Assembly: GCA_019637175.1 (NCBI GenBank)
Contig: JAHBWD010000010.1
Span: 126,715-190,714 of the forward strand
Length of the DNA: 64,000 nucleotides
Reading direction: 5' to 3'
Origin: Labilithrix sp.
GTDB taxonomy: Bacteria > Myxococcota_A > Polyangia > Polyangiales > Polyangiaceae
This document shows, piece after piece, positions 4,212-47,336 of this stretch; position 1 is the first letter of the stretch, and each line of letters begins with the position of its first letter. Position numbers and translations under genes: made by a program. The notes beneath the pieces were generated by a model. It was not told the origin of the DNA. It saw nothing but the letters and a program-made list of their open reading frames with translations, and searched no databases.

Positions 4212-4312
4212 CAGCCTAGGCCGCCGCGTCGCGACGGCGTCGACGAAAGTCGCTTTGCCCCTCGAGCTTCTCGTGGGCGCAACGCGGCCCGAGGATTGCT
4301 CCCCGATCGAGC

Positions 4313-7819: not shown

Positions 7820-8923
7820 GTGCCGTACACCTACATGGCACGACATCTGCTCTCAGTGCCAGACGTGGCCCGTACAGCGCTCCACCTCCTCGTCGTCGCC
7901 GCGCTCGTCGGGTGCGCTCCCGCCGATCCGATCGACGACGACGCCGAATCGGAAGACGCGCTCGCCTCGCACGCGATCTCCGGATACGCGGCGGTCGTTC
8001 CCGCGGAGCGCGTCGTCACCACCGCGCCCCTCCGCGTGCAGCTCGGAGAGCCCATCGTCGCCGGGCGCCGGCTCATGATCCTTCGACGCCTCGTGTTCCG
8101 CGGCGCGCCCGCGAAGCTCGTCGTCGACGCCGACAGCATGATCACCGCGCTCGTCGCCGACAGCGCGCTCGATCAGGGAGCGCGCGCGGCGCGACCGACC
8201 GACGCGCTCGATCAGTCGCCCTTCGCGTCGAGCCTGGCCACGCTCGCGGCGAGCGACGCGACGCTCGCGAGCATCGACGCCGACGCGCCGCTCGCCGCCG
8301 CCGAGCCGTTCGCGTTGACGATCGACATGTGTCAATCGCGCCGCCTCTGGGACGCAAAGCTCTTCGAATGGGCCGTCGCGCTCTCGAACCAGCTCGGCAA
8401 GCCCGTTCCCGTCGGCATCGCGATGACGGGGGGCTGGGCCAAGGCGCACCCCGACGAGCTCGGGCGCATCGACGCGTGGGCGCGTGAGGGCAAGCTCGCG
8501 ATCACGTGGATCAACCACTCGAGCACGCATCCGCTCCACTGCCGCGACGCTTCCTGCGCGCGCGCCGAGTTCCTCACCGCGAGCGGCGTCGACTTCGACG
8601 AAGAGGTCATGGGCCTCGAGCGATCGCTCCTCGCGCGCGGCCTCCTGCCGTCGGTGCTCTTTCGCTTCCCCGGCCTCGTCCACGACGCGCGCCGGCGCGG
8701 CCAGCTCTCGCGCCTCTCGCTCATGCCCCTCGACGCCGACGCGTGGATCGCGAAAGGTCAGCCCATCAAGCCGCGCGGCGTCGTCTTGGTCCACGGCAAC
8801 GGCAACGAGCCGCCGGGCATCACGCGGTTCTTGTCGCAAGTGGAGACGCGCGCGGACGCGCTTCGCGCCGGGCGGAGCGCGCTCGTGTCGCCGCTCCTCG
8901 CCGCGCCCACGCCTCCTCGCTGA
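7820..8923 (+). CDS. hypothetical lipoprotein, possible polysaccharide deacetylase (NodB-like) fold
   Basis: LVVAALVGCAP lipobox. TIDMCQS and INHSSTHP motifs loosely resemble NodB motifs 1 and 2. The start could be MARHLL at 7835. Confidence 0.4.
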   Translation: MPYTYMARHLLSVPDVARTALHLLVVAALVGCAPADPIDDDAESEDALASHAISGYAAVVPAERVVTTAPLRVQLGEPIVAGRRLMILRRLVFRGAPAKLVVDADSMITALVADSALDQGARAARPTDALDQSPFASSLATLAASDATLASIDADAPLAAAEPFALTIDMCQSRRLWDAKLFEWAVALSNQLGKPVPVGIAMTGGWAKAHPDELGRIDAWAREGKLAITWINHSSTHPLHCRDASCARAEFLTASGVDFDEEVMGLERSLLARGLLPSVLFRFPGLVHDARRRGQLSRLSLMPLDADAWIAKGQPIKPRGVVLVHGNGNEPPGITRFLSQVETRADALRAGRSALVSPLLAAPTPPR

Positions 8924-13194: not shown

Positions 13195-13296
13195 ACGATC
13201 CCTACCCGTTTCATCGCCGTGACCTCCCGTCTGGCATAGCGGGAGGACGCGAGCGCGTCGAGCGACGACGCGTGCGGCGTGGCGCCAGAGACCGCT

Positions 13297-14634
13297 TCAG
13301 CGGTCGTGCTTCGGGATCCCGCCCGCGGGGGCGACGTCGCGGATGCGCGCGGACGCGGCCTTGTAGCGAGCCTTCATGTCGGCGGCGAGCTCCGGCCTCG
13401 AGCGCCACAGATCCTGCTTCTCCTGCGGATCCGCCGCGAGGTCGAAGAGCGAGTATCGAACGTCGTTGCCGAAGGCGATGATCTTCGTCGTGCCGTGAAC
13501 GAGCGCGCGGCGGCGCTCGTTGTACTCGTCTTCCGGCAGATCGACGACGACGTCGCGCGCCGGCGCCGGCGCGCCGTCGAGCTCGGCGACGAGGCTCGCG
13601 CCCGGCAGCTCGACGGAGACGCCGAGCAGCGCGGCGAACGTGGGCGCGAGATCGACGTGTCCGCGCGGCTCGTCGATGGTCCGCGCCGCCCGGCCGGGCA
13701 CGTAGAAAAAGAGAGGCACGTGCACGAGCTCCTCCCAGACCTCGTGCGCGTGGCGCGTCATCCCGTGCTCGCCGAACGCCTCGCCGTGATCGGCGGTGAC
13801 GACGACGATCGTGCGCGCCGCCCACGGCTGCGCGTCGACGAAGTCGAGCAGCTTGCCGATCCACTGATCGGTGAAGAACACCTCCTCGTCGTAGAGATCG
13901 CGCGCGCGCTTGCCGAAGTGCGGGCTCTCCGCGTGCGTTTTGTACTCGTCGTGCGGGTCCATGTAGTGAAACCACGCGAGGAAGGGCTTGGGGCCCTGCG
14001 TGCCCTGTTTGCTCGCGACCTCACCGAGCATCTCGATCGCGAGCGGCGTGAGCTTGTCGCTCGTGACGTAGGGATCGGTCTGGTAGTCGAAGGTGATCCC
14101 CTTGACGATCCGCCAGTCGGAGAAGCCGTGCTCGAAGCCCGACTGCTTCGGGCCGAAGTACGCGTGGGCGTGCCCGCCGACGCAGGGAACGCCGGCGCTC
14201 CCGAACGCCGTGCACACGAAGTCGGTCTTCGTCAGGTAGCGCGTGAAGAACACGCCGGTGCGCGAGAGCTCCGACGGATAGCGGCCCGTGAGCAGGCCCG
14301 CGAGGCTCTTCGACGTGTAGCTCGAGGTGGAGTACGCGCGCGTGTAGCGGGTCGACTTCGCGTGGAGCGCCGAGAGCCGCGGCGCGATCGGGCGCTCGTA
14401 GCCGGCCCACGGCATGTCGGCGCGCAGGCTGTCGACGGTGATGAGCAAGATGTTCCACGGCGCGTCGGTGAGGCTCGCCGTCTTCGCGGCGCCGTCGCCG
14501 CCGTCGTGCAGCGACGCGTCGGCGTGCGCCGACGCGGCCTTCTCCGCCGGAGGCGGAGGTGCCTTCTGCTCGCACGAAGAGCACGCCGCGAGGCTCATCG
14601 CCGCGGCGATCGCGAGCGGTCCGAACCGGATCAT
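13297..14634 (-). CDS. sulfatase-like hydrolase/transferase lipoprotein (alkaline phosphatase superfamily), lacks canonical C/S-x-P-x-R
   Basis: Start MIRFGPLAIAAAMSLAACSS (M141 of ORF 13297..15054). Sulfatase-family motifs ILITVDSLRAD...TADHGEAFGEHG are present. The FGly site is replaced by SSYTSKSLAGLLTGRYP. Confidence 0.7.
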   Translation of the reverse strand: MIRFGPLAIAAAMSLAACSSCEQKAPPPPAEKAASAHADASLHDGGDGAAKTASLTDAPWNILLITVDSLRADMPWAGYERPIAPRLSALHAKSTRYTRAYSTSSYTSKSLAGLLTGRYPSELSRTGVFFTRYLTKTDFVCTAFGSAGVPCVGGHAHAYFGPKQSGFEHGFSDWRIVKGITFDYQTDPYVTSDKLTPLAIEMLGEVASKQGTQGPKPFLAWFHYMDPHDEYKTHAESPHFGKRARDLYDEEVFFTDQWIGKLLDFVDAQPWAARTIVVVTADHGEAFGEHGMTRHAHEVWEELVHVPLFFYVPGRAARTIDEPRGHVDLAPTFAALLGVSVELPGASLVAELDGAPAPARDVVVDLPEDEYNERRRALVHGTTKIIAFGNDVRYSLFDLAADPQEKQDLWRSRPELAADMKARYKAASARIRDVAPAGGIPKHDR

Positions 14635-14703
14635 CGCGGTCACCTTGCCGATTCTTTTCCGAAAGGCCAAGCAAATCATAGCGATGTGGTAGAAAATCCG
14701 GCA

Positions 14704-17001
14704 GTGCGCTGGGTCCGTCGAGTCTTCCTCACGATCTCGGGTGCGGCCTTCGCCGCGCTCTTCGTGGCGATGCTCGAGAGCATCACGATCGGGCGCGCGC
14801 TCTCGGCGGCCGATCAGCGTCCGCCTGGGATCTTCACGCTCCTCGGCAGCGCCGCCGGCGTCATCTTCCCGGTCGCGATGATCGTCGGGCTCGCGGTGGC
14901 GCCGCTCGCGATGCTCGTCGAGCCCGAAGGCAGCACGACGATCGTCCAAGACATCGCCGCGATCCGCGGCCAGCGCGCGCGCAGGCTGCGCGCAGCCGCG
15001 CTCACGCCGCTCCTCGGCCTCGCGATCTTCGTCGCGACCGTCGGCGCGGCGCACTTCGGGCGCGCGCTCATGGTCGCGAAGCGGCCCGTCGAGAGCGGCC
15101 TCTCGATGGGCATCTTGACCGTGGGGCTGTCGCTCGTGATGACCGCGGTCGCCCTCGCGATTCTGCCGACGCTATGGCGCCTCCTCGCGCGGCTCGCCAA
15201 CGTCTCGCGCTACGCCGATCCGCTCGTGACCGGCTCGACCGTCGCGGCCCTCGCGCTGCTCCTCATCGTCATCGGCGTTCGCACCGGCGACACCGGAGGC
15301 ACCGGCGGCGTCGCCGGCGTCGGCATCTTCGGCGTGCTCGCGCGCCCCGAGCTCGACCTCTTGCCCGTCGTGCACGCGCTCGGCATCGCGGCGTCGGCCT
15401 ACCTCGGCGGAACGCTCTCGCGCGGGCGGTTCGTCCGCGAAGCGTCGATCGCCGGCGGCGTCGCGGTGCTGTTGCTGTTCTTCCTCTGCGTGCGCTCGTC
15501 GTCGTCGCTCGGGCGCGAGCCCGACGTCGTCGTCGGCCTCGAGCGCCACGCTTCGCTCGGGCGCGTCTCTCTCGGGATCCTGCGCCGCGCGACCGATCGC
15601 GACGGCGACGGACACTCGGCGAGCTTCGGCGGCGCCGACTGCAACGACAACGACCGCTCGATCAACCCGGAGGCGATCGACATCCCGGGCAACGGGATCG
15701 ACGAAGACTGCTCCGGCGAAGACACCCCGCACGTCGTCGTCGCCCAGCCGGATCCTCCCCCGGTGAAGGATCCCACGCCCGCAGAGCCGGCGAAGCCGCG
15801 CCGCACCTTCAACGTGATCCTCGTCACCGTCGACACGCTCCGCTACGACCTCGGCTTCGCCGGCTACAACAAGCCGGTCTCCGCCAACATCGACGCGCTC
15901 GCCGCCAAGAGCGCCGTCTTCGAGCGCGCGTACTCGCTCTCCTCGTATACCGCCAAGAGCCTCGGGCCGCTGCACATCGGCCGCTACCCGAGCGAGGCGC
16001 TACGCGACGGCGATCACTTCACGACGTACTACCCGGCGAACACGTTCGTCGCCGAGCGCATCCACGAGATCGGCACGCGCAACGTCGGCGGGCATTGCCA
16101 CTACTACTTCATGTGGAACACGGGCTACGCGCAGGGCTTCGACGTCTGGGACACGTCGGCCATCGCGCCAGGCATGGCCGACAACGACTCGAGCATCACG
16201 AGCGAGCGCATGAGCGATCTCGCGATCAAGCTGCTCTCGCGACCGGAGAACGTCACGCCTCCGCCCCTGCCGAGCGGCGAGCCGCGCCGCTTCTTCATGT
16301 GGTTTCACTACTTCGATCCGCACGCGCAGTACGTGAGGCACGCGGGCGCGCCCGACTTCCGCGCGATCCCCGGCGGCCAGCCGGGCCGATGGATCTACGA
16401 CGAAGAGGTCTGGTTCACCGACAAGCACATCGGCCGCGTCCTCGATCACGTCGCGTCGCAGCCCTGGGGCGCCGACACGGCGATCATCATCACCGCCGAT
16501 CACGGCGAGGCCTTCGGCGACCACGGCGTGCGCACGCACGGCCACGAGCTCTACGAGCCGCTCGTGCGGGTGCCGCTCGTCATGTACGTCCCCGACGCCA
16601 AGCCGCGTCGCGTCGGGATCAAGCGATCGCACATCGATCTGGCGCCGACGATCATGGACCTCGTCGGCGCGCCGCCGGCGCCGCCGGGAGAGCTGCGCGG
16701 CAAGACGCTGCTCACCGACGTCTACGCCGCGTCGGACGAGACGCTCGAGGAGCGCGACGTGTACCTCGACATGCCGCAGGGCCCGATGAACGACATGCGC
16801 CGCGGGATCCTCACGGGCAAGACGCCGGGGATGAAGCTGCTCCACTTCGGCGGCAAGCGCTACCAGCTCTACGATCTCGCCGCCGATCCGGGAGAGACGA
16901 ACGATCTCTCCGAAGATCCGGAGAAGTTCAAGCCGGTGATGGATCGCCTGCAACAGCTCCGCGCGGGCCTCGCCGAGGTCGCCATCGGCGCGCGCAAGTG
17001 A
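14704..17001 (+). CDS. membrane-anchored sulfatase-like hydrolase/transferase with MopE-like metal-binding motif
   Basis: GTG start, then a multi-TM N-terminal domain, then GADCNDNDRSINPEAIDIPGNGIDEDCSGED (Myxococcales putative metal-binding motif), then a catalytic domain paralogous to 13297..14634 (ILVTVDTLRYD...SSYTAKSLGPLHIGRYP...TADHGEAFGDHG). The 5' part of ORF 13279..17001 is shadow. Confidence 0.65.
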   Translation: MRWVRRVFLTISGAAFAALFVAMLESITIGRALSAADQRPPGIFTLLGSAAGVIFPVAMIVGLAVAPLAMLVEPEGSTTIVQDIAAIRGQRARRLRAAALTPLLGLAIFVATVGAAHFGRALMVAKRPVESGLSMGILTVGLSLVMTAVALAILPTLWRLLARLANVSRYADPLVTGSTVAALALLLIVIGVRTGDTGGTGGVAGVGIFGVLARPELDLLPVVHALGIAASAYLGGTLSRGRFVREASIAGGVAVLLLFFLCVRSSSSLGREPDVVVGLERHASLGRVSLGILRRATDRDGDGHSASFGGADCNDNDRSINPEAIDIPGNGIDEDCSGEDTPHVVVAQPDPPPVKDPTPAEPAKPRRTFNVILVTVDTLRYDLGFAGYNKPVSANIDALAAKSAVFERAYSLSSYTAKSLGPLHIGRYPSEALRDGDHFTTYYPANTFVAERIHEIGTRNVGGHCHYYFMWNTGYAQGFDVWDTSAIAPGMADNDSSITSERMSDLAIKLLSRPENVTPPPLPSGEPRRFFMWFHYFDPHAQYVRHAGAPDFRAIPGGQPGRWIYDEEVWFTDKHIGRVLDHVASQPWGADTAIIITADHGEAFGDHGVRTHGHELYEPLVRVPLVMYVPDAKPRRVGIKRSHIDLAPTIMDLVGAPPAPPGELRGKTLLTDVYAASDETLEERDVYLDMPQGPMNDMRRGILTGKTPGMKLLHFGGKRYQLYDLAADPGETNDLSEDPEKFKPVMDRLQQLRAGLAEVAIGARK

Positions 17002-17078: not shown

Positions 17079-18281
17079 ATGCGATCCCTTCCTTGCCTCG
17101 GGCGCCGCTCGTTCCTCGCCGGCGCGATCGTCGGTTGCGGCCGCGCGCCGCGCTCGAACGACGCGCCGCCGCGACCTTCCGCGTCCTCGCCTCGTGAGCC
17201 GCCGCCGACCGACGCCGCGGCCCCTCCCCCTCGGCCGGCGCACGCGCTCTTCGAGGTGTATCCGGCGCTCGCGGCGACCTTGCCGCGCGCCCCCCTCGCG
17301 CGGTTCCCTTCGACGGTCGAAGACGCGAGCGCGGTCACGCGATCGCTTTGGATCAAGCGCGACGACGACTTCACCCGCGGCGCGCCGCCGGCGGATCCGC
17401 TCGGACGGATCTTCGGCGGGGGCAAGGTGCGCAAGCTCGAGCTCTACTTCGGCGAGGCGCGCGCGCAGAACAAGCGAAGGATCATCACGACGGGCGGCGT
17501 GGGATCGAACCAGGCGCTCGCCGTCGCGCTCCTCGGTGAGTCGCTCGGCTTCGAGGTGAGCCTCTACCTCGCGCCGCAGCCGCCTTCTTCGCTCACCGCC
17601 AAGAACCTCGCGGGCGACGCCGCCTCGGGCGCGGAGCTGCGCCTCTTCGACAGCGTCACCGAAGCTCACGCCCGCGCGACGCGCGAAGCGAGAGAGCGCC
17701 GCGACGTGTACGTGATCCCGCCGGGTGGAACGACGCCGCTCGGCACGCTCGGCTTCGTCAACGCGGGCCTCGAGCTCGCCGAGGACGTGCGCGCAGGGAG
17801 GCTCCCCTCACCCCGCCGGATCTACGTCGCGCTCGGCCTCGGCGGGAGCGCCGCGGGCCTCGGCATCGGCTGCGCCCTCGCCGGCCTGCGAACGGAGATC
17901 ATCGGCGTGCGCGCGTCGAGCCCGGCGTCGGTCTCCGCGGCGACGCTCCGCGCGATCCACGACGAGACCGTCGCCTTCGCGCGCGCGCGCGATCCGAGCT
18001 TCCCCACGGTGAAGCACGAGAACGTCCGCATCGACGGGCGCTTCGTCGGCGGCGGCTACGGCGTCCCGACGCCCGCGGGCGACGAGGCCGTCGCGCGCGG
18101 ACGCTCCGAAGGTTGGGAGCTCGACGTCGTCTACACGGGCAAGGCCCTCGCGGCGATCCTCGACGACGCGCGCGCCTCGGAGGCCGAGCCCTGGCTCTTC
18201 TGGAACACGATGAGCTCCCGGCCCGTGCCTTCGGGCGCCGTTCCCGCCGCGTTTCGTTCCTTCGTTCGGAGCTCTCCCTGA
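17079..18281 (+). CDS. ACC deaminase/D-cysteine desulfhydrase family PLP enzyme with Tat/lipoprotein signal
   Basis: RRSFLAGAIVGCG Tat motif plus lipobox. WIKRDD...GGGKVRKLE PLP-lysine motif. Confidence 0.65.
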   Translation: MRSLPCLGRRSFLAGAIVGCGRAPRSNDAPPRPSASSPREPPPTDAAAPPPRPAHALFEVYPALAATLPRAPLARFPSTVEDASAVTRSLWIKRDDDFTRGAPPADPLGRIFGGGKVRKLELYFGEARAQNKRRIITTGGVGSNQALAVALLGESLGFEVSLYLAPQPPSSLTAKNLAGDAASGAELRLFDSVTEAHARATREARERRDVYVIPPGGTTPLGTLGFVNAGLELAEDVRAGRLPSPRRIYVALGLGGSAAGLGIGCALAGLRTEIIGVRASSPASVSAATLRAIHDETVAFARARDPSFPTVKHENVRIDGRFVGGGYGVPTPAGDEAVARGRSEGWELDVVYTGKALAAILDDARASEAEPWLFWNTMSSRPVPSGAVPAAFRSFVRSSP

Positions 18282-19462
18282 TGCGACGCTGGCTCGTCAC
18301 CCTCGCGGCATGCCTCGGATGCAGCACCGCGCACGATCCGCCGAGGCACGCGCCCGCGCCTCCCAGCGCGACGACGATCGCGAGCGACGCCGGAGATGCC
18401 GGAGACGCCGGAGGCGCGAGCGACGCCGCGCTCGCCGGCGACAAGCTCGTCCCCGACGAGGCCGTCGGCCCGCTCCTCGCGCGCCTCTCCGAGAACCCGG
18501 GGAGCTTCCCCAGCGAGAACTACGTGACGAACGAGACCTCGCTGCTCCACGTCGCGCCGACCCTCCGCGATCCTCGGCTCCGCGGCCGCGCCTATGTCGG
18601 CGTGGGACCGGAGCAGAGCTACACCTATCTCGCGATGCTCGAGCCGCGCGTCGCGTACGTGGTCGACATCCGGCGCGGGAACTTCCTCGAGCACTTGATG
18701 TTCCGCGGATGCTTCGAGGCCGGTGAGACGCGCGCCGCGTTTTTGACCGCGCTGCTCTCCCGCCGCCCGCGATCGATCGCCGAGACCGCCGGCGCGGGCT
18801 TCGCCCCGCTCGACGCGGCGCTCCGCGGCGTCACCGCCGACGCCGCGCTCCGCGACGAGGGCGTCGCGCGAACCAGGGCGGTGCTCGATCGGCTCGCCGT
18901 CGTTCGCGCGGCGGGCGACGACAAGGAGATCGCGCGCATCCACGAAGCCTTCGCCAAGCACGGCCTCTCGATCGCCTACACCATGCTCAACAGCGATCGG
19001 AAGTACCCCACGCTCGCCGAGAACTTCGCCGCGCGCGATCCCGACGGCGCGCCCGCGAGCTTCCTCGCCTCCGAAGAGACCTACGCGCGCGTTCGCCGCC
19101 TCGTCCTCGCCAACCGCGTCTTGCCCGTCGTCGGCGACTTCGGCGGATCGCATTCGCTGCGCGCGGTCGCCGACGACATGCGCGCGCGAAACCTGCTCCT
19201 CGGCGTGTTCTACACCTCGAACGTCGAGCAGTACCTCTTCGAGTCGCGCAAGCACGGCGCGTTCGCGGGGAGCGTCGGCGCGATGCCGTACGACGAGCAG
19301 AGTCGGCTCGTACGCGTCTGGTTCGATCAAGGACGGCCGCACCCCGCCCAGCGGCCAGGCCACCGCACCACGCAGATCACCGTCCCGGTGACGGCCTTCC
19401 TCGATCGCGCGGCGAAGAAGCCGTTCCGCTCCTACTGGGACGTCGTCACTCGCGCGGAGTGA
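18281..19462 (+). CDS. hypothetical lipoprotein
   Basis: ATG overlaps the upstream stop (TGATG). MRRWLVTLAACLGCS lipobox; 393 aa. Confidence 0.55.
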   Translation: MRRWLVTLAACLGCSTAHDPPRHAPAPPSATTIASDAGDAGDAGGASDAALAGDKLVPDEAVGPLLARLSENPGSFPSENYVTNETSLLHVAPTLRDPRLRGRAYVGVGPEQSYTYLAMLEPRVAYVVDIRRGNFLEHLMFRGCFEAGETRAAFLTALLSRRPRSIAETAGAGFAPLDAALRGVTADAALRDEGVARTRAVLDRLAVVRAAGDDKEIARIHEAFAKHGLSIAYTMLNSDRKYPTLAENFAARDPDGAPASFLASEETYARVRRLVLANRVLPVVGDFGGSHSLRAVADDMRARNLLLGVFYTSNVEQYLFESRKHGAFAGSVGAMPYDEQSRLVRVWFDQGRPHPAQRPGHRTTQITVPVTAFLDRAAKKPFRSYWDVVTRAE

Positions 19463-20149
19463 CTAGGCGACGCGCAGCTCGGGCTCGCCGACCACCTCGA
19501 CGGCGGGGACGTAGCGGCCGTCCTTCTCCGAGTACGCGAGCATGCGCCCCGCGCCGATGTCGAACCACCACGCGTAGAGGCGAACGTCGCCGCGCGCGAC
19601 GCGTTCGCGGACGAACGAGTGCGTCTCGAGGTTCGCGACCTGCTGGCGCGTCGCGATCTGCGAGAGCTGATCATGCTCGGCGAGCGTGGAATCGAGCGGC
19701 CCCTTGGTGCGCCACGTCTCGACGGACCCGCTCGCGAGCGCGAGCCAGCGCCGAAGAGCCGGCGACGGCGGAGGCTCGGGCGCGAGCGCCGCCTTCATTC
19801 CTCCGCAGCCAGAGTGACCACACACGACGACGTTCCGCACGCCGAGGACCTCGAGCGCGTACCAAACGGCGGCGGTGACGCTGCAGTGCTCCGCTTCGTC
19901 GCCGTCTTCCCGAGCCGCGGGCACGAGGTTGGCCACGTTGCGCACGATGAACAGCTCACCGGGCTCGGCTGACGCGACGAGGTTCGGCACGAGCCGGCTG
20001 TCGGCGCACGTGATCAGCATCGCGAGCGGAGCTTGACCATCCGCGAGCGCAGCAAATCGATCGCGGTACTTCTCCCGCGTCTGTTGTTCGTAGCGCTCGA
20101 GCCCTTCGACGAGAGTTTTCACGGGGCGGCGCCAATTCACGCCCCGTGC
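19463..20149 (-). CDS. beta-class carbonic anhydrase
   Basis: CADSRLVP and VCGHSGCGG zinc-ligand motifs. Start MARGVNW is M of the C-terminal 229 aa of the spurious 1134-aa ORF 19463..22867. Confidence 0.8.
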   Translation of the reverse strand, partial: ARGVNWRRPVKTLVEGLERYEQQTREKYRDRFAALADGQAPLAMLITCADSRLVPNLVASAEPGELFIVRNVANLVPAAREDGDEAEHCSVTAAVWYALEVLGVRNVVVCGHSGCGGMKAALAPEPPPSPALRRWLALASGSVETWRTKGPLDSTLAEHDQLSQIATRQQVANLETHSFVRERVARGDVRLYAWWFDIGAGRMLAYSEKDGRYVPAVEVVGEPELRVA

Positions 20150-20308
20150 CATGCGGGAGCTCCGACGATCTGGGCCTACGCGAGCCGTAGTGTCGGGCAG
20201 CACCGACACTTCGCCGTCCGCCGAAGCCGACTCTCGTAATGTTGCGAAATCCATCACGTCGATCACCGTGCGTGCCGCGTTCTCCGTGGCTAAAGTCAAA
20301 CCCACGCA

Positions 20309-21802
20309 ATGTCGATGAACGCCTCTGCCGCACGATCTACTCGGCCCCCGCGAGCGACCGGCACGAGCTCGACTCGACCGCACGTTCTGCTCGTCGAAGA
20401 CGATCTCGACCTCTGCGAGCTGCTCTCCATCCGGATCGAAGCGGCGGGCTACGACGTGTCGGTCGAGCACAGCGTTCAGGGAGCCCTCGAGCACGTCGGC
20501 TCCGAGCGCGTCGACGCCATCCTCCTCGACCTCCGCCTCGGCAACGAAGACGGCTTCGAGGTGCTCGAGGGAGTCGCCAAGCGATCGGCGCACGTCCCGG
20601 TCATCATCCTCACGGCGCACGGATCCATCGACCTCGCGGTCGAGGCGATGAAGAAGGGCGCCTATGCGTTCGTCACCAAGCCCTTCCACGACCACGATCT
20701 GCTCGAGAAGCTCAAGCACACGGTCGAGAGCCACCGGCTCCGCCGGGAGATCGCGGGCCTCCGTCGCATCGTCGGCGTGCACGACGAGCGCACGCGCCTC
20801 GTCGGCGTGAGCCCGGCGATCGAGCGCGTCCGCGAGATGATCGGGCTCGTCGCCCCCACCGACACGACGGTCCTCATCCTCGGCGAGTCGGGCACGGGCA
20901 AGGAGATCGTCGCGCGGTCGATCGCGGCGCTCTCGCCCCGCAAGGACGGCCCGTTCATCGCGGTCAACTGCGCGGGCCTCTCGGCCGAGCTCCTCGAGAG
21001 CACGCTCTTCGGCCACAAAAAAGGCGCCTTTACGGGCGCCGTGTCCGAGCGCGAGGGCCTGTTCGGCGCCGCGCGCAAGGGCACGCTCTTCCTCGACGAG
21101 ATCGGCGAAACCCCGCTCGAGGTCCAGGCCAAGCTCCTCCGCGTGCTCCAAGAGCGTCGCTTCACCGCGCTCGGCTCGACGGTCGAGCAAGAAGCCGACG
21201 TGCGCATCATCACCGCGACCAACCGCGATCTCCGCCAGGAGGTCGTCGAGAAGCGCTTCCGCGAAGATCTGTTCTACCGGCTCCACGTCGTGCCGCTCGC
21301 GATGCCCGCGCTCCGTGAGCGCCGCGAAGACGTGACGCTGCTCGCCGAGATGTTCCTCGAGCGCGCCGCCGCACGCGCCGGGATCACGACGCCGCAGCTC
21401 GGCGCCCGCGCGCTCGGCGCGCTCAACGCGCACTCGTGGCCGGGCAACGTGCGCGAGCTCGAGAACGTCATGGAGGCGGCCGTTTTGCTTTGCCGCAACG
21501 GCGAGATCGATCTCGATCACCTCCCCGGCATCGGAACGAGCAGCCCCGGCCCCGCCGACGCGCGCACGGCGGATCTGGCGCGCGGGGCCGCGAACCTGCT
21601 CTCGATTTACGCGTCGTCCGACGGTCCGGCGCCTCCTCCCTTGCGCGACGCACGCGAGGCCTTCGAAGGGGCGTACCTCGACGTGGTGCTCGCGCGCTCG
21701 GGCGGAAACGTGACGACCGCGGCGAAGCTCGCGGGCCGTAACCGCACCGATTTTTACGACTTGATGCGCCGCCACGGCCGGTCGCCGCAGCGCGACGGTT
21801 GA
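20309..21802 (+). CDS. sigma54-dependent response regulator (NtrC/Fis family: REC + AAA+ + HTH)
   Basis: REC domain (VLLVEDD...ILLDLRLG). GESGTGKE Walker A, GAFTGA sigma54-contact motif, and a C-terminal Fis-type HTH. Confidence 0.85.
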   Translation: MSMNASAARSTRPPRATGTSSTRPHVLLVEDDLDLCELLSIRIEAAGYDVSVEHSVQGALEHVGSERVDAILLDLRLGNEDGFEVLEGVAKRSAHVPVIILTAHGSIDLAVEAMKKGAYAFVTKPFHDHDLLEKLKHTVESHRLRREIAGLRRIVGVHDERTRLVGVSPAIERVREMIGLVAPTDTTVLILGESGTGKEIVARSIAALSPRKDGPFIAVNCAGLSAELLESTLFGHKKGAFTGAVSEREGLFGAARKGTLFLDEIGETPLEVQAKLLRVLQERRFTALGSTVEQEADVRIITATNRDLRQEVVEKRFREDLFYRLHVVPLAMPALRERREDVTLLAEMFLERAAARAGITTPQLGARALGALNAHSWPGNVRELENVMEAAVLLCRNGEIDLDHLPGIGTSSPGPADARTADLARGAANLLSIYASSDGPAPPPLRDAREAFEGAYLDVVLARSGGNVTTAAKLAGRNRTDFYDLMRRHGRSPQRDG

Positions 21803-21817
21803 GTGCTGTATTTCGCA

Positions 21818-21835
21818 TCGTCGGAAGAATCCGAC
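21818..21835. promoter_or_regulatory. perfect palindrome CGTCGGA-AGAA-TCCGACG (candidate enhancer/UAS)
   Basis: 7-bp arms, about 85 bp upstream of the sigma54 promoter; seen directly in sequence. Confidence 0.35.
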
Positions 21836-21909
21836 GGTGTCGGCCCGAGGCGACGCTCGCGCAGACGTCGTAAGGCCTGAATTTGCCTGAGATCCTCGCG
21901 TCCGGCAGG

Positions 21910-21925
21910 TGGCACTTAGGTTGCT
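21910..21925 (+). promoter_or_regulatory. sigma54 (-24/-12) promoter TGGCAC-N5-TTGCT
   Basis: TGGCACttaggTTGCT matches the RpoN consensus exactly. It lies between the activator gene and the SulP gene. Confidence 0.6.
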
Positions 21926-22069
21926 CCTAACGCGCGCGATGGAATCTTCGAAGGCGACCGCGCTCGCGCTCGTCACGCTCCTCGGGATGCTCCTCGTGGC
22001 GCAGACCGACGGGGCGCGAGCCACGGCGCTGTCGCTGCGCCCGCGCAAGCCGGTCACCCAGCCGGTCCG

Positions 22070-23539
22070 ATGCGAGCCGGCCTCGACGACGCCAGCCACC
22101 TCTCTCGACGCTCCCCTCTCGCCCGACGCTCCGAGGAACCCGTGACCACCGAAGCCCCGACGACGAGCGCCGCCCGGCTTCGTCTCTTCTTCAAGTTCTT
22201 CGACAGCCGCTTCGAGGATCTCGACAGGCGCTCGTGGAAGAAGACCGTCTATCGCGACCTCAGCGCCGGCCTCGTCGTCGCGTTGACCGCGATCCCGATG
22301 GCGATGGGCTTCGCGATGGCGATGGGGCTCAGGCCGGAGCAGGGCATCATCGCCGGCGCGCTCGCGTGCGCGGTCGGCCGCACGTTCGGCGGGTCGAAGT
22401 ACCAGGTGTACGGCCCCACGGCCGCGTTCATTCCGGTCATCGCCAGTCTGATGGCGAAGTACGGCGAGGCCAACGGCGGCTCGTTCGCCGCCGCGCACGG
22501 CATGCTCGTCTTCGTGTCGATCCTCGCGGGCGTCGTGCTGATGGCCTGCGGCGTCGCCGGCCTCGGCAAGGTCGCGAAGAAGGTGCCGCCGTCGATCGTC
22601 GTGGGCTTCACCGTCGGCATCGCCGTCGCGATCGCCCTCACGAACTCCACCGACGCGCTCGGGCTCGGGGCGAGCTCGGGTTCGATGCGCGCGCGCCTCG
22701 CGTTCATCGCGGCCAACCTCGGGCAGATCAACTGGTGGGCGCTCGGGCTCGCCGCCCTCACGTTCGCGCTGACGAAGGGACTGCTGCGCGTCTCGATCTT
22801 CATCCCCGCGCCGCTCATCGCCCTCGGCGTGTGCACGCTGCTCACGGCCACGGTGCTCGACGGGCACGGCGTCACGCTGGTCCGCGATCGCTTCGGGAGC
22901 ATCCCGAACCAGTTCTTCGTCTTCACGCCGCCGATCCTCCCGCCGGCCACCCTCGCGGTCGTGATCGACTGCGTCTACTACGTCTCCGCGATCGTCTTCG
23001 TGTCAGGCATCGAGAGCCTCCTCTGCTCGTCGATGGCCGATCGCCTCGCGAACAACAAGAAGACGCCGTTCAACCCCGACAAGGAGTTCTGGGGACAGGG
23101 CCTCGTCCAGATCATCACGCCGCTGCTCAACGGCTTCCCCTGCACCGGCGCGCTCGCGCGAACGGCGACGAGCATCAAGGCGGGCGCGGTCACGCCGCTC
23201 GCGGGCTACTTCAAGTTCGCGCTGAAGCTCCTCATGGCCTACTTCCTCGCCTCCTACCTCGAGCGCGTCCCGCTCGCGTGCATCGCCGGGATCCTCTTCT
23301 GGGTCGCGACGAACATGGTGAAGAAGGCCGAGATCCTCGAGGTGTGGAAGCACGCCGGCCGCTTCCACACCGGGCTGATGATCTACACCGCGGTCATGGT
23401 GCCGATGACCGACTTCCTCACGGCGGTCCTCTCCGCGCTCGGCATCTACGTCGTCTACGCGCGGCTCACCCGCAAGCGCGACAGCGACAAGCCCGTCGCT
23501 GCCCCGTCGACGCCCGACATGCAGGCCGCCGCGGAGTAA
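22070..23539 (+). CDS. SulP-family anion (sulfate/bicarbonate) permease lacking a STAS domain
   Basis: About 11-12 TM helices with SulP signature regions (GPTAAFIPVI..., FPCTGALARTATSIKAGAVTPLAG). Ends right after the membrane domain. An alternative GTG start lies at 22142. Confidence 0.75.
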   Translation: MRAGLDDASHLSRRSPLARRSEEPVTTEAPTTSAARLRLFFKFFDSRFEDLDRRSWKKTVYRDLSAGLVVALTAIPMAMGFAMAMGLRPEQGIIAGALACAVGRTFGGSKYQVYGPTAAFIPVIASLMAKYGEANGGSFAAAHGMLVFVSILAGVVLMACGVAGLGKVAKKVPPSIVVGFTVGIAVAIALTNSTDALGLGASSGSMRARLAFIAANLGQINWWALGLAALTFALTKGLLRVSIFIPAPLIALGVCTLLTATVLDGHGVTLVRDRFGSIPNQFFVFTPPILPPATLAVVIDCVYYVSAIVFVSGIESLLCSSMADRLANNKKTPFNPDKEFWGQGLVQIITPLLNGFPCTGALARTATSIKAGAVTPLAGYFKFALKLLMAYFLASYLERVPLACIAGILFWVATNMVKKAEILEVWKHAGRFHTGLMIYTAVMVPMTDFLTAVLSALGIYVVYARLTRKRDSDKPVAAPSTPDMQAAAE

Positions 23540-23544
23540 GCGGG

Positions 23545-24243
23545 TCAGGCCAGCGCGACGTAGATGTTCTGAACGTCGTCGTCTTCGTCGAGCGCGCCGA
23601 GGAAGGCCTCGACCTCCGCGCGCTGCGCGTCGTCGACGCTGACGGGGTTCTTCGCCTTCCAGATGAGCGCGGCGGAGCTGACGACCCATTTGCGATCGGC
23701 GAGCGCCTTGCTCACCGCGTCGAGATCGGTCGGCTCGGTGAAGAACCGCGTCGCGCCCTCGTCGCCCGCCTCGAGATCCTGGGCGCCGCTCTCGATCGCC
23801 GCTTCCTCGGCGTCGACGTCCGCGCTCGGCGGCGTCGCCTCGATCTGCCCGAGGCGGTTGAAGTCCCACGAGACGGAGCCCGAAGCGCCGAGCTGCCCCT
23901 TGCGGAAGAGCATGCGCACGTTCGCCGAGGTGCGGTTTCTGTTGTCGGTCAGACACTCGACGATGACGGGCACCTGATTCGGGGCAAAGCCCTCGTAGGT
24001 CACGACCTCGTACTGCACCTGCTCGTCGAGGAGCCCCGCGCCCTTCTTGATGGCGCGCTCGAGCGTGTCTTTCGTCATCGAGGCCTTCTTCGCCGCCTCG
24101 ACCGCCATGCGCAGGCGCGGGTTCATCGACGGATCGGGGCCGCTGCGCGCGGCCACCATGATCTCCTTCGCGAGCTTCGTGAAGATGCGCCCCTTCGCCG
24201 CGGCCGAAGCCTCACGGCCCTTCTGCTTCCACTGTGCACCCAT
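23545..24243 (-). CDS. YebC/PmpR family DNA-binding transcriptional regulator
   Basis: [13 protein letters not shown]...[10 protein letters not shown]...SVSWDF are typical YebC motifs. Confidence 0.8.
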
Positions 24244-26782: not shown

Positions 26783-26894
26783 TCGCGACGCCGGCGCCAC
26801 GGGCGCCGGGCGATCCGGCGGGCTAACCGATCGAGAAGCGCGGCGTTTCGTGACGGGATGACGTGGGGCACGTCGCTTGCTCCTGGTGACGGTC

Positions 26895-46685: not shown

Positions 46686-47336
46686 TCAGCGCTTGCGGCC
46701 CTTGGCCGACTTCTGAACCTTCGCGCTCTTGTTCACGTTCTTGGGCGCGCGCGCGCGATCGAGCGTTCTCGCCGGCGCCTTCGGCTTCGCGCTCTTCTTC
46801 TTCGGCGTGGCCGGCGCGTCAGGCGCGTCGGTGACCTGCCAGCCGTACGTCTCGGCGATGAGGCGCGCGGTGTCGCGCGCGAGCACCGTTTTCTCGGAGA
46901 GAGAATAGAAGCCTCGCATCACGAGCGCCGACATCATCTCCTTCGGCGACAGGCCCATCTGCTGCGCGAGATCGGAGAGCGCGATCTCGCTGCCGATCGC
47001 GACCGAGGGCGAAGGCGGCGGCGCCTCGACGGGCGCCGGCTCGGCGGCGGGCTCGGGCTCGTCGTCGGCGCCGAGGATGGCGTCGAGCCGTCGGAGCTCG
47101 CCGACGCGAAGCGAAGCCAGCGCGCGCGCGACGTTGACGGAGGAGGGCGGCCCGTCTTCGTCTTCTTCATTCGCACTCGGCGCGAAGCCGCGCGTGCTCC
47201 CGGTGAACGCGCGCGGCGGAGCGCCGGGCGCCTCGACGATGCGACGCCGCACGACGACGGCGGGACGTAACGGAGCGAGGATGGTGCTGGAGCCTTCCGC
47301 TTCGCGGCGTTCGCGCGTCTTGTCGGCCATGGGCAT
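46686..47336 (-). CDS. IF-2 N-terminal-domain-containing protein
   Basis: Segment SPKEMMSALVMRGFYSLSEKTVLARDTARLIAETYGWQV resembles the IF2_N domain. Lys-rich C-terminal tail. Confidence 0.5.
   Translation of the reverse strand: MPMADKTRERREAEGSSTILAPLRPAVVVRRRIVEAPGAPPRAFTGSTRGFAPSANEEDEDGPPSSVNVARALASLRVGELRRLDAILGADDEPEPAAEPAPVEAPPPSPSVAIGSEIALSDLAQQMGLSPKEMMSALVMRGFYSLSEKTVLARDTARLIAETYGWQVTDAPDAPATPKKKSAKPKAPARTLDRARAPKNVNKSAKVQKSAKGRKR

Follow-up and report, generated by a model that had tools for sequence, protein, structure and literature searches.

A probable two-component, sigma-54-controlled anion-uptake module of Myxococcota, present at a Labilithrix locus without its kinase gene

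What controls a SulP transporter that is encoded beside a carbonic anhydrase in a heterotrophic myxobacterium? The question is raised by a locus in a 64-kb stretch of high-GC DNA from a metagenome-assembled genome of Labilithrix sp., Myxococcota (this whole stretch is referred to as the window), where the gene of an NtrC-like response regulator, hereafter the activator, lies between a beta-carbonic anhydrase gene and the gene of a SulP transporter without a STAS domain. The regulation of anhydrase-linked SulP transporters outside cyanobacteria appears to be essentially undescribed, no paper on it having been found in the literature searched, and nothing pertinent was found there on control of SulP or carbonic anhydrase by sigma-54 and its enhancer-binding proteins. 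Comparison with related loci indicates that the locus is probably a two-component, sigma-54-controlled anion-uptake module of Labilithrix-like and other Myxococcota, that this copy is without the kinase gene, and that SulP most probably carries bicarbonate.

The sigma-54 promoter and its upstream dyads

The related loci were fetched with the SulP sequence, from one genome per species, from metagenomes and by exact look-up of close homologues. This gave 17 distinct loci including the window (16 without it) in which an orthologous activator (54–83% identity) is linked to the cassette. Excluded from the counts are L010 and L011, which have degenerate -12 elements only, and L039 and L051, whose activators are 40–41% identical and whose upstream repeat is different. 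The metagenome scan yielded mainly distant Bacteroidota or methanotroph loci or duplicates of genome loci, and new arrangements came from L084 and L120 only.

A reading made from the sequence alone (the sequence-only reading) had proposed that an NtrC-type activator, acting through a palindromic upstream site and a sigma-54 promoter, drives SulP, and this central interpretation is supported by the comparison. The textbook -24/-12 element that it described stands at exactly the coordinates given: TGGCACTTAGGTTGCT at 21910-21925 is the sole perfect match to TGGCAC-N5-TTGCW within the 64 kb (0.02 expected), with its GG and GC doublets exactly 10 nt apart, and the activator gene ends 108 bp upstream of it. 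A -24/-12 element lies directly upstream in 17 of 17 loci, perfect in 13 and with one mismatch in four (12 and four without the window), and the two doublets are invariant across all 17 promoters. Failure of TGGCAC-N5-TTGC to persist in orthologous loci had been set beforehand as one outcome that would overturn the proposal; the element is kept in 16 of 16 related loci.

The palindrome CGTCGGA-AGAA-TCCGACG was read correctly but placed one base too early, at 21818-21835 instead of 21819-21836; its conserved core, GTCGG-N6-CCGAC, occupies 21820-21835. Perfect copies of this core number four in the window against 0.6 expected, a count reached in no shuffle, and two of the four flank the activator gene, each with a one-mismatch copy 19–24 bp beyond it. 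The other two, at 47090 (inside long open reading frames, ORFs) and 14518 (within the span of an ORF at 13279..17001), have no sigma-54 site near them and were set aside as chance. With the transcription start taken from canonical spacing, 12 nt past the -12 C, the sites at the SulP promoter are centred near -108 (GTCGGaagaatCCGAC) and -90 (GTCGGcccgagGCGAC). Among the 15 loci scanned, 14 carry the dyad motif 66–148 bp upstream of the predicted start, and site density is 8.0 per kb within 200 bp upstream of the promoter versus 0.29 per kb elsewhere (~28-fold). Tandem copies are 19–35 bp apart. The loci agree in the half-sites and in their 6-nt spacing but differ in spacer and flanks, which fits a protein-binding site rather than a hairpin.

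A second pair of sites (20192-20231) lies between the anhydrase and activator genes, and the equivalent anhydrase/kinase intergenic region carries the motif in eight relatives (L001, L002, L004, L006, L007, L161, L164, L166); auto-regulation, control of the anhydrase, or both are likely functions of this pair. The minus strand of the window yielded no sigma-54 promoter that could serve the anhydrase, and relatives with the same divergent layout are likewise without one. The anhydrases of L012 and L015 do have a perfect sigma-54 promoter of their own together with an activator site, and the L011 promoter is degenerate. In another Labilithrix genome (L167 5640-8205), two perfect GTCGG-N6-CCGAC copies and the variant TGTCTG-N6-CAGACA stand upstream of a 734-aa fusion of SulP with an LbH domain; no activator gene adjoins the fusion gene, its -12 element is degenerate, and its leader is an ordinary one of ~20 nt with AGGA. 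The activator regulon probably reaches beyond the cassette.

Start geometry and the small open reading frame

The first start codon follows TTGCT at a distance of 12–15 nt, mostly 12–13 nt, in each of the 17 loci. This geometry predicts a near-leaderless sigma-54 mRNA for the cassette, because with the canonical start the leader would be 2–5 nt long, which is effectively none. The first start codon is that of SulP itself in four loci (L003, L012, L015, L016) and opens an ORF of 47–91 codons in 13. The sequence-only reading had pointed to a possible 66-aa leader ORF at this place; the ORF is there, with its ATG 13 nt past the -12 pentamer, but it has 68 codons (21939-22145). Its product is identical to MBX3187480.1, the NCBI hypothetical protein KF819_10720.

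Long spurious ORFs are common in window DNA, which has ~70% GC. In 11 of 11 examples examined, GC content at third codon positions (GC3) is highest in the frame of the small ORF, and over its codons 1–35 nonsynonymous divergence is below synonymous divergence (pN<pS) in 44 of 45 pairs, with a median ratio (dN/dS) of 0.36. By these measures the small ORF is a real coding sequence under purifying selection. The peptides, 47–91 aa in 13 distinct loci, share a polar N-terminus (M-D/E-x-S/T-K-A), a hydrophobic helix of ~16 residues and the segments Q-x-D/E-G-A-R-A and S/T-A-I/L-S-L-R-P, followed by a variable, proline-rich tail often with one Cys; judged by inspection, they resemble signal peptides or signal anchors and have an AxA site. 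The small ORF matched nothing in Pfam or NCBIfam. A HMMER search of 1.84 billion representatives returned six related small-protein clusters, aligned from residue 1, plus one spurious low-complexity match, and a word-indexed protein search returned nothing beyond the ORF itself.

The stop codon of the small ORF overlaps the following start in 12 of 13 loci, as GTGA (22142-22145) in the window and as ATGA in 11 further loci; L164 has TAGccATG. The overlap is a classic arrangement for translational coupling with SulP. In L003 the first residues of the peptide, MDSSKAA, are fused directly to SulP. L168 (1-1699; also L169) combines an orthologous activator C-terminus, two perfect GTCGG-N6-CCGAC, TGGCGC-N5-TTGCT and a 54-aa homologue of the small ORF. 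The micro-protein could be a coupling or membrane-targeting leader, or it could act autonomously, e.g., as a feedback partner of the kinase.

The start distance is not confined to this promoter. A scan of the window for sigma-54-like sites that keep GG and GC and deviate at no more than two other positions found nine, four of them with at most one mismatch (0.36 expected). At seven of these sites an ORF with coding-type GC3 begins with an ATG or GTG 12–14 nt past the -12 pentamer, and four of the six ORFs behind the sites other than 21910 begin with lipoprotein-like signal sequences (lipoboxes LVGC, VVAC, VAAC). The start codons of the L012 and L015 anhydrases likewise lie 12–15 nt past the -12 element. 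In L051 (3672-4250, Archangium, the activator at 40–41% identity), a 181-aa membrane-protein ORF starts at a GTG 12 nt past CGGCAC-N5-CTGCT; this ORF sits upstream of anhydrase and SulP, an operon variant with the same start geometry. Since the spacing recurs at the six window sites, at the L012 and L015 anhydrase promoters and in L051, leaderless sigma-54 transcripts are maybe lineage-wide. As a bolder and rather doubtful extension, sigma-54 promoters of this myxobacterial lineage might be built as a rule to yield leaderless mRNAs, with the micro-protein as a regulatory first cistron of a new type. Such promoters would tie activator-dependent transcription directly to Shine-Dalgarno-independent initiation, and the micro-protein could either take part in feedback on the kinase or carry the nascent operon mRNA to the membrane. 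The literature searched for leaderless sigma-54 mRNAs contained nothing pertinent; if general, the architecture would bear on the co-evolution of leaderless translation and activator-dependent promoters.

A comparable geometry is suggested for the regulatory genes. No consensus sigma-70 promoter was called in a scan of 19300-23800. In relatives, GGCTAGATT lies 8–12 nt before the kinase start codon (L001 1630-1662, L004 1665-1683), and its window counterpart GGCTAAAGT (20288-20311) precedes the activator start, with TAAAGT 12 nt before the ATG. Both look like sigma-70 -10 boxes at a distance that would give a further near-leaderless transcript.

Table 1. Features of the locus and sigma-54-like sites in the window
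Feature	Position	Strand	Remarks
Beta-carbonic anhydrase gene, 229 aa	19463-20152	-	Pfam Pro_CA
Anhydrase/activator intergenic region, 156 bp	20153-20308		
First activator-site pair	20192-20231		Perfect GTCGGgcagcaCCGAC 20192-20207; one-mismatch GTCCGccgaagCCGAC 20216-20231
TAAAGT, possible sigma-70 -10 hexamer	20291-20296	+	From comparison with L001 and L004; inference only
NtrC/GlrR-like response regulator/sigma-54 enhancer-binding protein, 497 aa	20309-21802	+	REC, AAA+ (GAFTGA), putative C-terminal Fis-type HTH
Palindrome CGTCGGA-AGAA-TCCGACG	21819-21836		
SulP-promoter activator-site pair	21820-21854		Perfect GTCGGaagaatCCGAC 21820-21835; one-mismatch GTCGGcccgagGCGAC 21839-21854
Sigma-54 -24/-12 promoter TGGCAC-ttagg-TTGCT, TGGCACttaggTTGCT	21910-21925	+	Predicted start near 21936
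Small ORF, 68 codons	21939-22145	+	Peptide MESSKATALALVTLLGMLLVAQTDGARATALSLRP...
SulP, 465 aa, STAS-less	22142-23539	+	Pfam PF00916
YebC-family gene, convergent	23545-24243	-	
Six sigma-54-like sites besides 21910	4285-4300, 6878-6863, 7836-7851, 26866-26881, 41491-41476, 42315-42330	+, -, +, +, -, +	1–2 mismatches

Activator, kinase, transporter and competing explanations

The activator matches Pfam Sigma54_activat (1.5e-67), Response_reg (2e-25) and AAA_lid_14. Its receiver residues can be read in the translation (VEDD, LLDLRL, ILTAHG, VTKPF, i.e., DD, D, T and K intact), Walker A (GESGTGKE) and GAFTGA are present, and the C-terminus (GRNRTDFYDLMRRHG) is strongly conserved among orthologues. 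In one comparison with related loci the orthologues were 74–83% identical. The protein is under every NCBIfam equivalog cutoff, including those of GlrR, NtrC and NtrX, the best being GlrR with 412.9 bits versus 763.

The sequence-only reading had called the activator an orphan with no histidine kinase adjacent. Indeed, no kinase homologue was detectable by tblastn at the locus or anywhere in the 64 kb, but orphanhood is a derived, local state, as relatives carry a cognate kinase. In nine distinct relatives (L001, L002, L004, L006, L007, L161, L163, L164, L166) the kinase gene lies directly upstream of the activator, and the gene order is AhpC-like, anhydrase (-), kinase (+), activator (+), promoter, small ORF, SulP, DeoC-like. 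The kinase has two transmembrane segments, a periplasmic domain of ~150 residues, HAMP, HisKA and HATPase, and its stop codon overlaps the activator start. The start region of the window activator (GGCTAAAGT...ATGTCGATGAAC) resembles that of the relatives' kinase (GGCTAGATT...ATGTCGTGGATC), which is consistent with a deletion that fused the kinase promoter and start to the activator. A full-length kinase, MBX3187127.1, is 55–58% identical to those of the relatives; because its accession is only 354 below that of the window SulP, it is probably from the same assembly, on another contig, accession proximity being the only basis for this assignment. The anhydrase neighbours in the window (18113-19462, 17079-18281) are a DUF7790 protein and a pyridoxal-phosphate-dependent enzyme (1-aminocyclopropane-1-carboxylate-deaminase/D-cysteine-desulfhydrase-like), and the AhpC/MarR context of relatives is not kept beside it. 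Since these neighbours differ, the cassette appears to have moved or been rearranged in this genome.

SulP, whose sequence is that of NCBI MBX3187481.1, matches PF00916 at 1e-53 over profile positions 3-371 of 380. It gave no STAS match in Pfam, the PF00916 match ending ~55 residues before the C-terminus and leaving a short tail only. Its GTG start lies within the GTGA overlap and is preceded by GAGGA, and among solved structures the protein matches the BicA membrane domain 6KI1 best (2e-18, residues 36-428). The transporter had been described as truncated, a term that does not hold in the sense of damage, because its homologues, more than 3,800 and mostly 450–490 aa with PF00916 alone, share the same STAS-less form by the thousand. 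Some homologues are fused C-terminally to an LbH (gamma-carbonic-anhydrase-like) or Usp domain. Orthologues 64–70% identical occur in Bacteroidota, methanotrophic Gammaproteobacteria, Planctomycetota and Verrucomicrobiota; this cross-phylum conservation, seen across L013-L080 (e.g., L049 2321-6368, L024 934-7304), is unusually high and raises the question of horizontal transfer.

Among 80 species SulP loci, a response regulator and a kinase occur together in 46; the family is usually under two-component control. Outside Myxococcota the SulP-linked regulator is OmpR-type, e.g., in Emticicia and Methylotuvimicrobium buryatense, and the regulator class is thus swapped between phyla around the same SulP. 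Within the Emticicia locus (L049 4495-4977), a 160-aa ORF without a Pfam match lies between kinase and SulP, where other phyla have the small ORF or the anhydrase. Activator–SulP linkage outlasts rearrangement, being found in kinase–activator–SulP, anhydrase–SulP–kinase–activator and divergent forms. The window anhydrase (Pro_CA PF00484, E=1.9e-41), with the zinc-ligand motifs CADSR and HSGCGG and a GGAG Shine-Dalgarno, is divergent from the activator gene, as first described, on the minus strand at 19463-20152 and 156 bp away. A beta-carbonic anhydrase lies within 5 kb of SulP in 23 of the 80 species loci, and in M. buryatense it precedes a SulP–Usp fusion.

STAS-less SulP proteins have been described as invariably encoded beside carbonic anhydrase or fused to it and predicted to be bicarbonate carriers, and the can2-sulP transcript drops with rising CO2 (PMC6458275). 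SulP–carbonic anhydrase fusions such as Rv3273 are also on record (Felce & Saier 2004, cited in PMC6458275), and similar SulP/anhydrase operons have been noted in Methylococcus (PMC11423575). Some SulP transporters, not all, rescue carbonic-anhydrase-less Escherichia coli (PMC12628692), and reviews stress the weakness of SulP substrate predictions (PMC10880623). The step from SulP plus anhydrase to bicarbonate, which the sequence-only reading also took, is by analogy reasonable and already published for this kind of SulP; bicarbonate is our best guess for the substrate, at somewhat better than even chances.

Several observations weigh against the module as proposed. The HTH_8 match of the activator is weak (18.8 bits versus the Pfam cutoff of 22), and the kinase gene is gone from the locus, so activation here hangs on some other partner. 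The small ORF of L168 is ATGA-coupled to a DUF1275 (YoaK-like) membrane protein, not to SulP; this assigns the micro-ORF to the regulatory cassette, not to SulP as such, and the cassette is not strictly SulP-dedicated. SulP itself is below the BicA equivalog cutoff (114.5 bits versus 880) and also below the DauA and generic SulP cutoffs of NCBIfam, 57 of the 80 orthologous SulP loci are without a nearby beta-carbonic anhydrase, and one SulP of Thiomicrospira pelophila failed to carry inorganic carbon (PMC12628692).

How far do these and other points favour different explanations? The palindrome, 17 nt past the activator stop codon and capable of a 7-bp hairpin, might be the terminator of that gene or a chance inverted repeat rather than a binding site. 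We find this hardly tenable: the scan of 19300-23800 called no terminator there and no T-run follows, half-site sequence and spacing are kept rather than pairing alone, the copies stand in tandem, and the motif also occurs where no gene ends, namely in the divergent anhydrase/kinase region and upstream of the L167 SulP. It is very improbable, too, that the ~200 nt from promoter to SulP form an untranslated 5' leader or riboswitch and that the ORF is a by-product of high GC. The frequency of long spurious ORFs in such DNA and the absence of a known family for the peptide would suit that explanation, but the GC3 peak in the ORF frame, the excess of pN<pS pairs, the fixed distance from promoter to start and the stop/start overlap kept in 12 of 13 loci speak against it. 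A structured leader was also sought directly and rejected, as an Rfam scan of 21750-22250 gave no match and folding was no better than that of shuffles (z=0.64). A stronger contender, although still a minority view, is that the small ORF is chiefly an autonomous micro-protein, either an MgrB-like modulator of kinase feedback or an accessory subunit of the next membrane protein. Conservation of the N-terminal 35 residues (dN/dS 0.36), extending to the post-helix segment GARA-S/T-A-I/L-SLRP, and the presence of the ORF beside activator and promoter even with DUF1275 downstream argue for such a role; the four loci that lost it and start SulP at the same position, the C-terminal half that varies in length and sequence, and its retention in the window despite the loss of the kinase from the locus argue against.

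The two remaining alternatives concern the module as a whole. The window copy may be decaying or rewired, its activator constitutively off or run by acetyl-phosphate or a non-cognate kinase, so that its regulation differs from the ancestral one. The kinase is absent from locus and window, its flanks are not the AhpC...DeoC surroundings conserved in relatives, and the remodelled activator N-terminus seems to reuse the ATGTCG start region of the kinase. Against this, all genes are intact with normal codon bias, the receiver residues, Walker A and GAFTGA are unimpaired, promoter and both site pairs are perfect or near-perfect, and a full-length, 57%-identical kinase is probably encoded elsewhere in the same assembly; decay is thus improbable, if less so than a terminator or an untranslated leader. 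More weight is due to the possibility that the regulatory scheme holds but the SulP substrate is sulfate or some other anion, with the system answering sulfur or anion limitation and the anhydrase being incidental or serving pH balance. PF00916 spans sulfate, dicarboxylate and other carriers, and the scores below the BicA cutoff, the 57 loci without a nearby anhydrase, the SulP that moved no inorganic carbon in E. coli (PMC12628692) and the weakness of substrate predictions (PMC10880623) all lean that way. Opposed to it are the repeated anhydrase linkage in several gene orders, the anhydrases of L012 and L015 with their own sigma-54 promoter and activator site, the LbH/gamma-anhydrase-like fusions among close homologues and the published clade analysis that ties STAS-less SulP to carbonic anhydrase (PMC6458275). 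We consider another anion clearly less likely than bicarbonate and return below to the bicarbonate module.

The proposed circuit and its known counterparts

Sequence and comparison establish the promoter and the sites, how the genes are ordered, that the small ORF is coding and that its stop overlaps the next start; from these we infer the following circuit. The response regulator would bind the tandem GTCGG-N6-CCGAC dyads centred near -108 and -90 and, once its receiver is phosphorylated, would drive the ATP-dependent opening of the sigma-54 closed complex at TGGCAC-N5-TTGCT. The inducing signal may be low CO2/bicarbonate or pH. The predicted transcription start is ~3 nt ahead of the small-ORF ATG, which would give an effectively leaderless mRNA, read without a Shine-Dalgarno sequence. 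The small ORF would yield the conserved signal-anchor-like micro-protein, and its stop, overlapping the SulP start as GTGA, would couple SulP translation, for which SulP also has its own GAGGA. The STAS-less, anhydrase-associated SulP most probably moves bicarbonate, which the cytoplasmic beta-carbonic anhydrase would interconvert with CO2. Through the second site pair, in the anhydrase/activator intergenic region, the activator probably regulates its own gene, the anhydrase, or both.

In kind the circuit is classical, a two-component system with a sigma-54 promoter and a target transporter, here governing an already-predicted SulP/anhydrase pair. Its variant features are the loss of the kinase in this copy, a defined new binding motif, a near-leaderless sigma-54 transcript and a coupled signal-anchor micro-ORF that accompanies the promoter. 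The complete circuit, comprising the kinase of relatives, activator, motif, promoter and targets, could show how a heterotrophic soil bacterium senses its supply of inorganic carbon or anions, with the periplasmic domain of the kinase as a candidate sensor of that signal. A cultured relative, Pendulispora brunnea, has a homologous kinase, so experiments are feasible. Interest would rise if the leaderless sigma-54 architecture is general, or if the kinase senses inorganic carbon.

The nearest regulatory parallels are DctB/DctD at dctA and NtrB/NtrC at glnAp2, where a two-component system activates a transporter or assimilation gene with sigma-54 through tandem upstream sites. They share a membrane kinase and a REC–AAA+–HTH activator (in the window protein with a putative HTH) beside the target, tandem dyads ~80–150 bp upstream of a GG-N10-GC promoter, and sites upstream of the regulator gene as well. 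The window differs in its motif, GTCGG-N6-CCGAC, in the locally missing kinase and in the near-leaderless transcript that opens with a micro-ORF; no DctD model was among the 25 best-scoring NCBIfam families listed for the activator. GlrK/GlrR (QseE/QseF) of enterobacteria provides the best NCBIfam model and has the same domain architecture and sigma-54 dependence, and JGI labels related kinases GlrK. However, the activator scores 413 versus 763 bits, the target is a transporter operon and not the small RNA glmY, and the cassette has no QseG-like lipoprotein gene between kinase and regulator.

The small ORF invites comparison with SecM–secA, MifM–yidC2 and VemP–secDF2, whose leader ORFs bear signal peptides, and with MgrB–PhoQ, a small membrane feedback peptide. 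As in these systems, a short ORF with an N-terminal hydrophobic segment stands immediately before, and is translationally linked to, a membrane-protein gene, and it is the first product of an operon under two-component regulation. It has no homology to SecM, MifM, VemP or MgrB. Unlike the first three, it has no conserved C-terminal arrest motif, that half being variable, and what follows is SulP or DUF1275 rather than a membrane-biogenesis factor. PexR of Myxococcus xanthus is likewise an enhancer-binding protein with dyad upstream repeats and a sigma-54 promoter, and its own gene has been proposed to give a leaderless mRNA (PMC12754779). It differs from the window activator in having a GAF domain and no receiver and in serving peroxide defence, and the leaderless transcript proposed for it is from a sigma-A promoter, not from the sigma-54 promoter (PMC12754779).

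On the transport side, BicA, SbtA and the SulP-CS of T. pelophila (PMC12628692) resemble the window pair in the SulP membrane domain and in a presumed supply of bicarbonate alongside an anhydrase. BicA differs in having a STAS domain, and its similarity to the window SulP is low. Cyanobacterial bicarbonate-transporter genes are under LysR-type regulators. Closest of all is the can2-sulP 'clade C' of Acidithiobacillus ferrooxidans (Esparza et al. 2019, PMC6458275), likewise a STAS-less SulP beside or fused to an anhydrase and predicted to be a bicarbonate carrier. The window SulP is likened to it by architecture and anhydrase linkage, not by placement in a tree with Rv3273 or AFE_0286, and the window anhydrase gene is divergent, not co-transcribed. 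For the can2-sulP clusters neither a regulator nor a promoter type nor a leader ORF is described (PMC6458275), and their host is an autotroph, whereas the window belongs to a heterotrophic myxobacterium.

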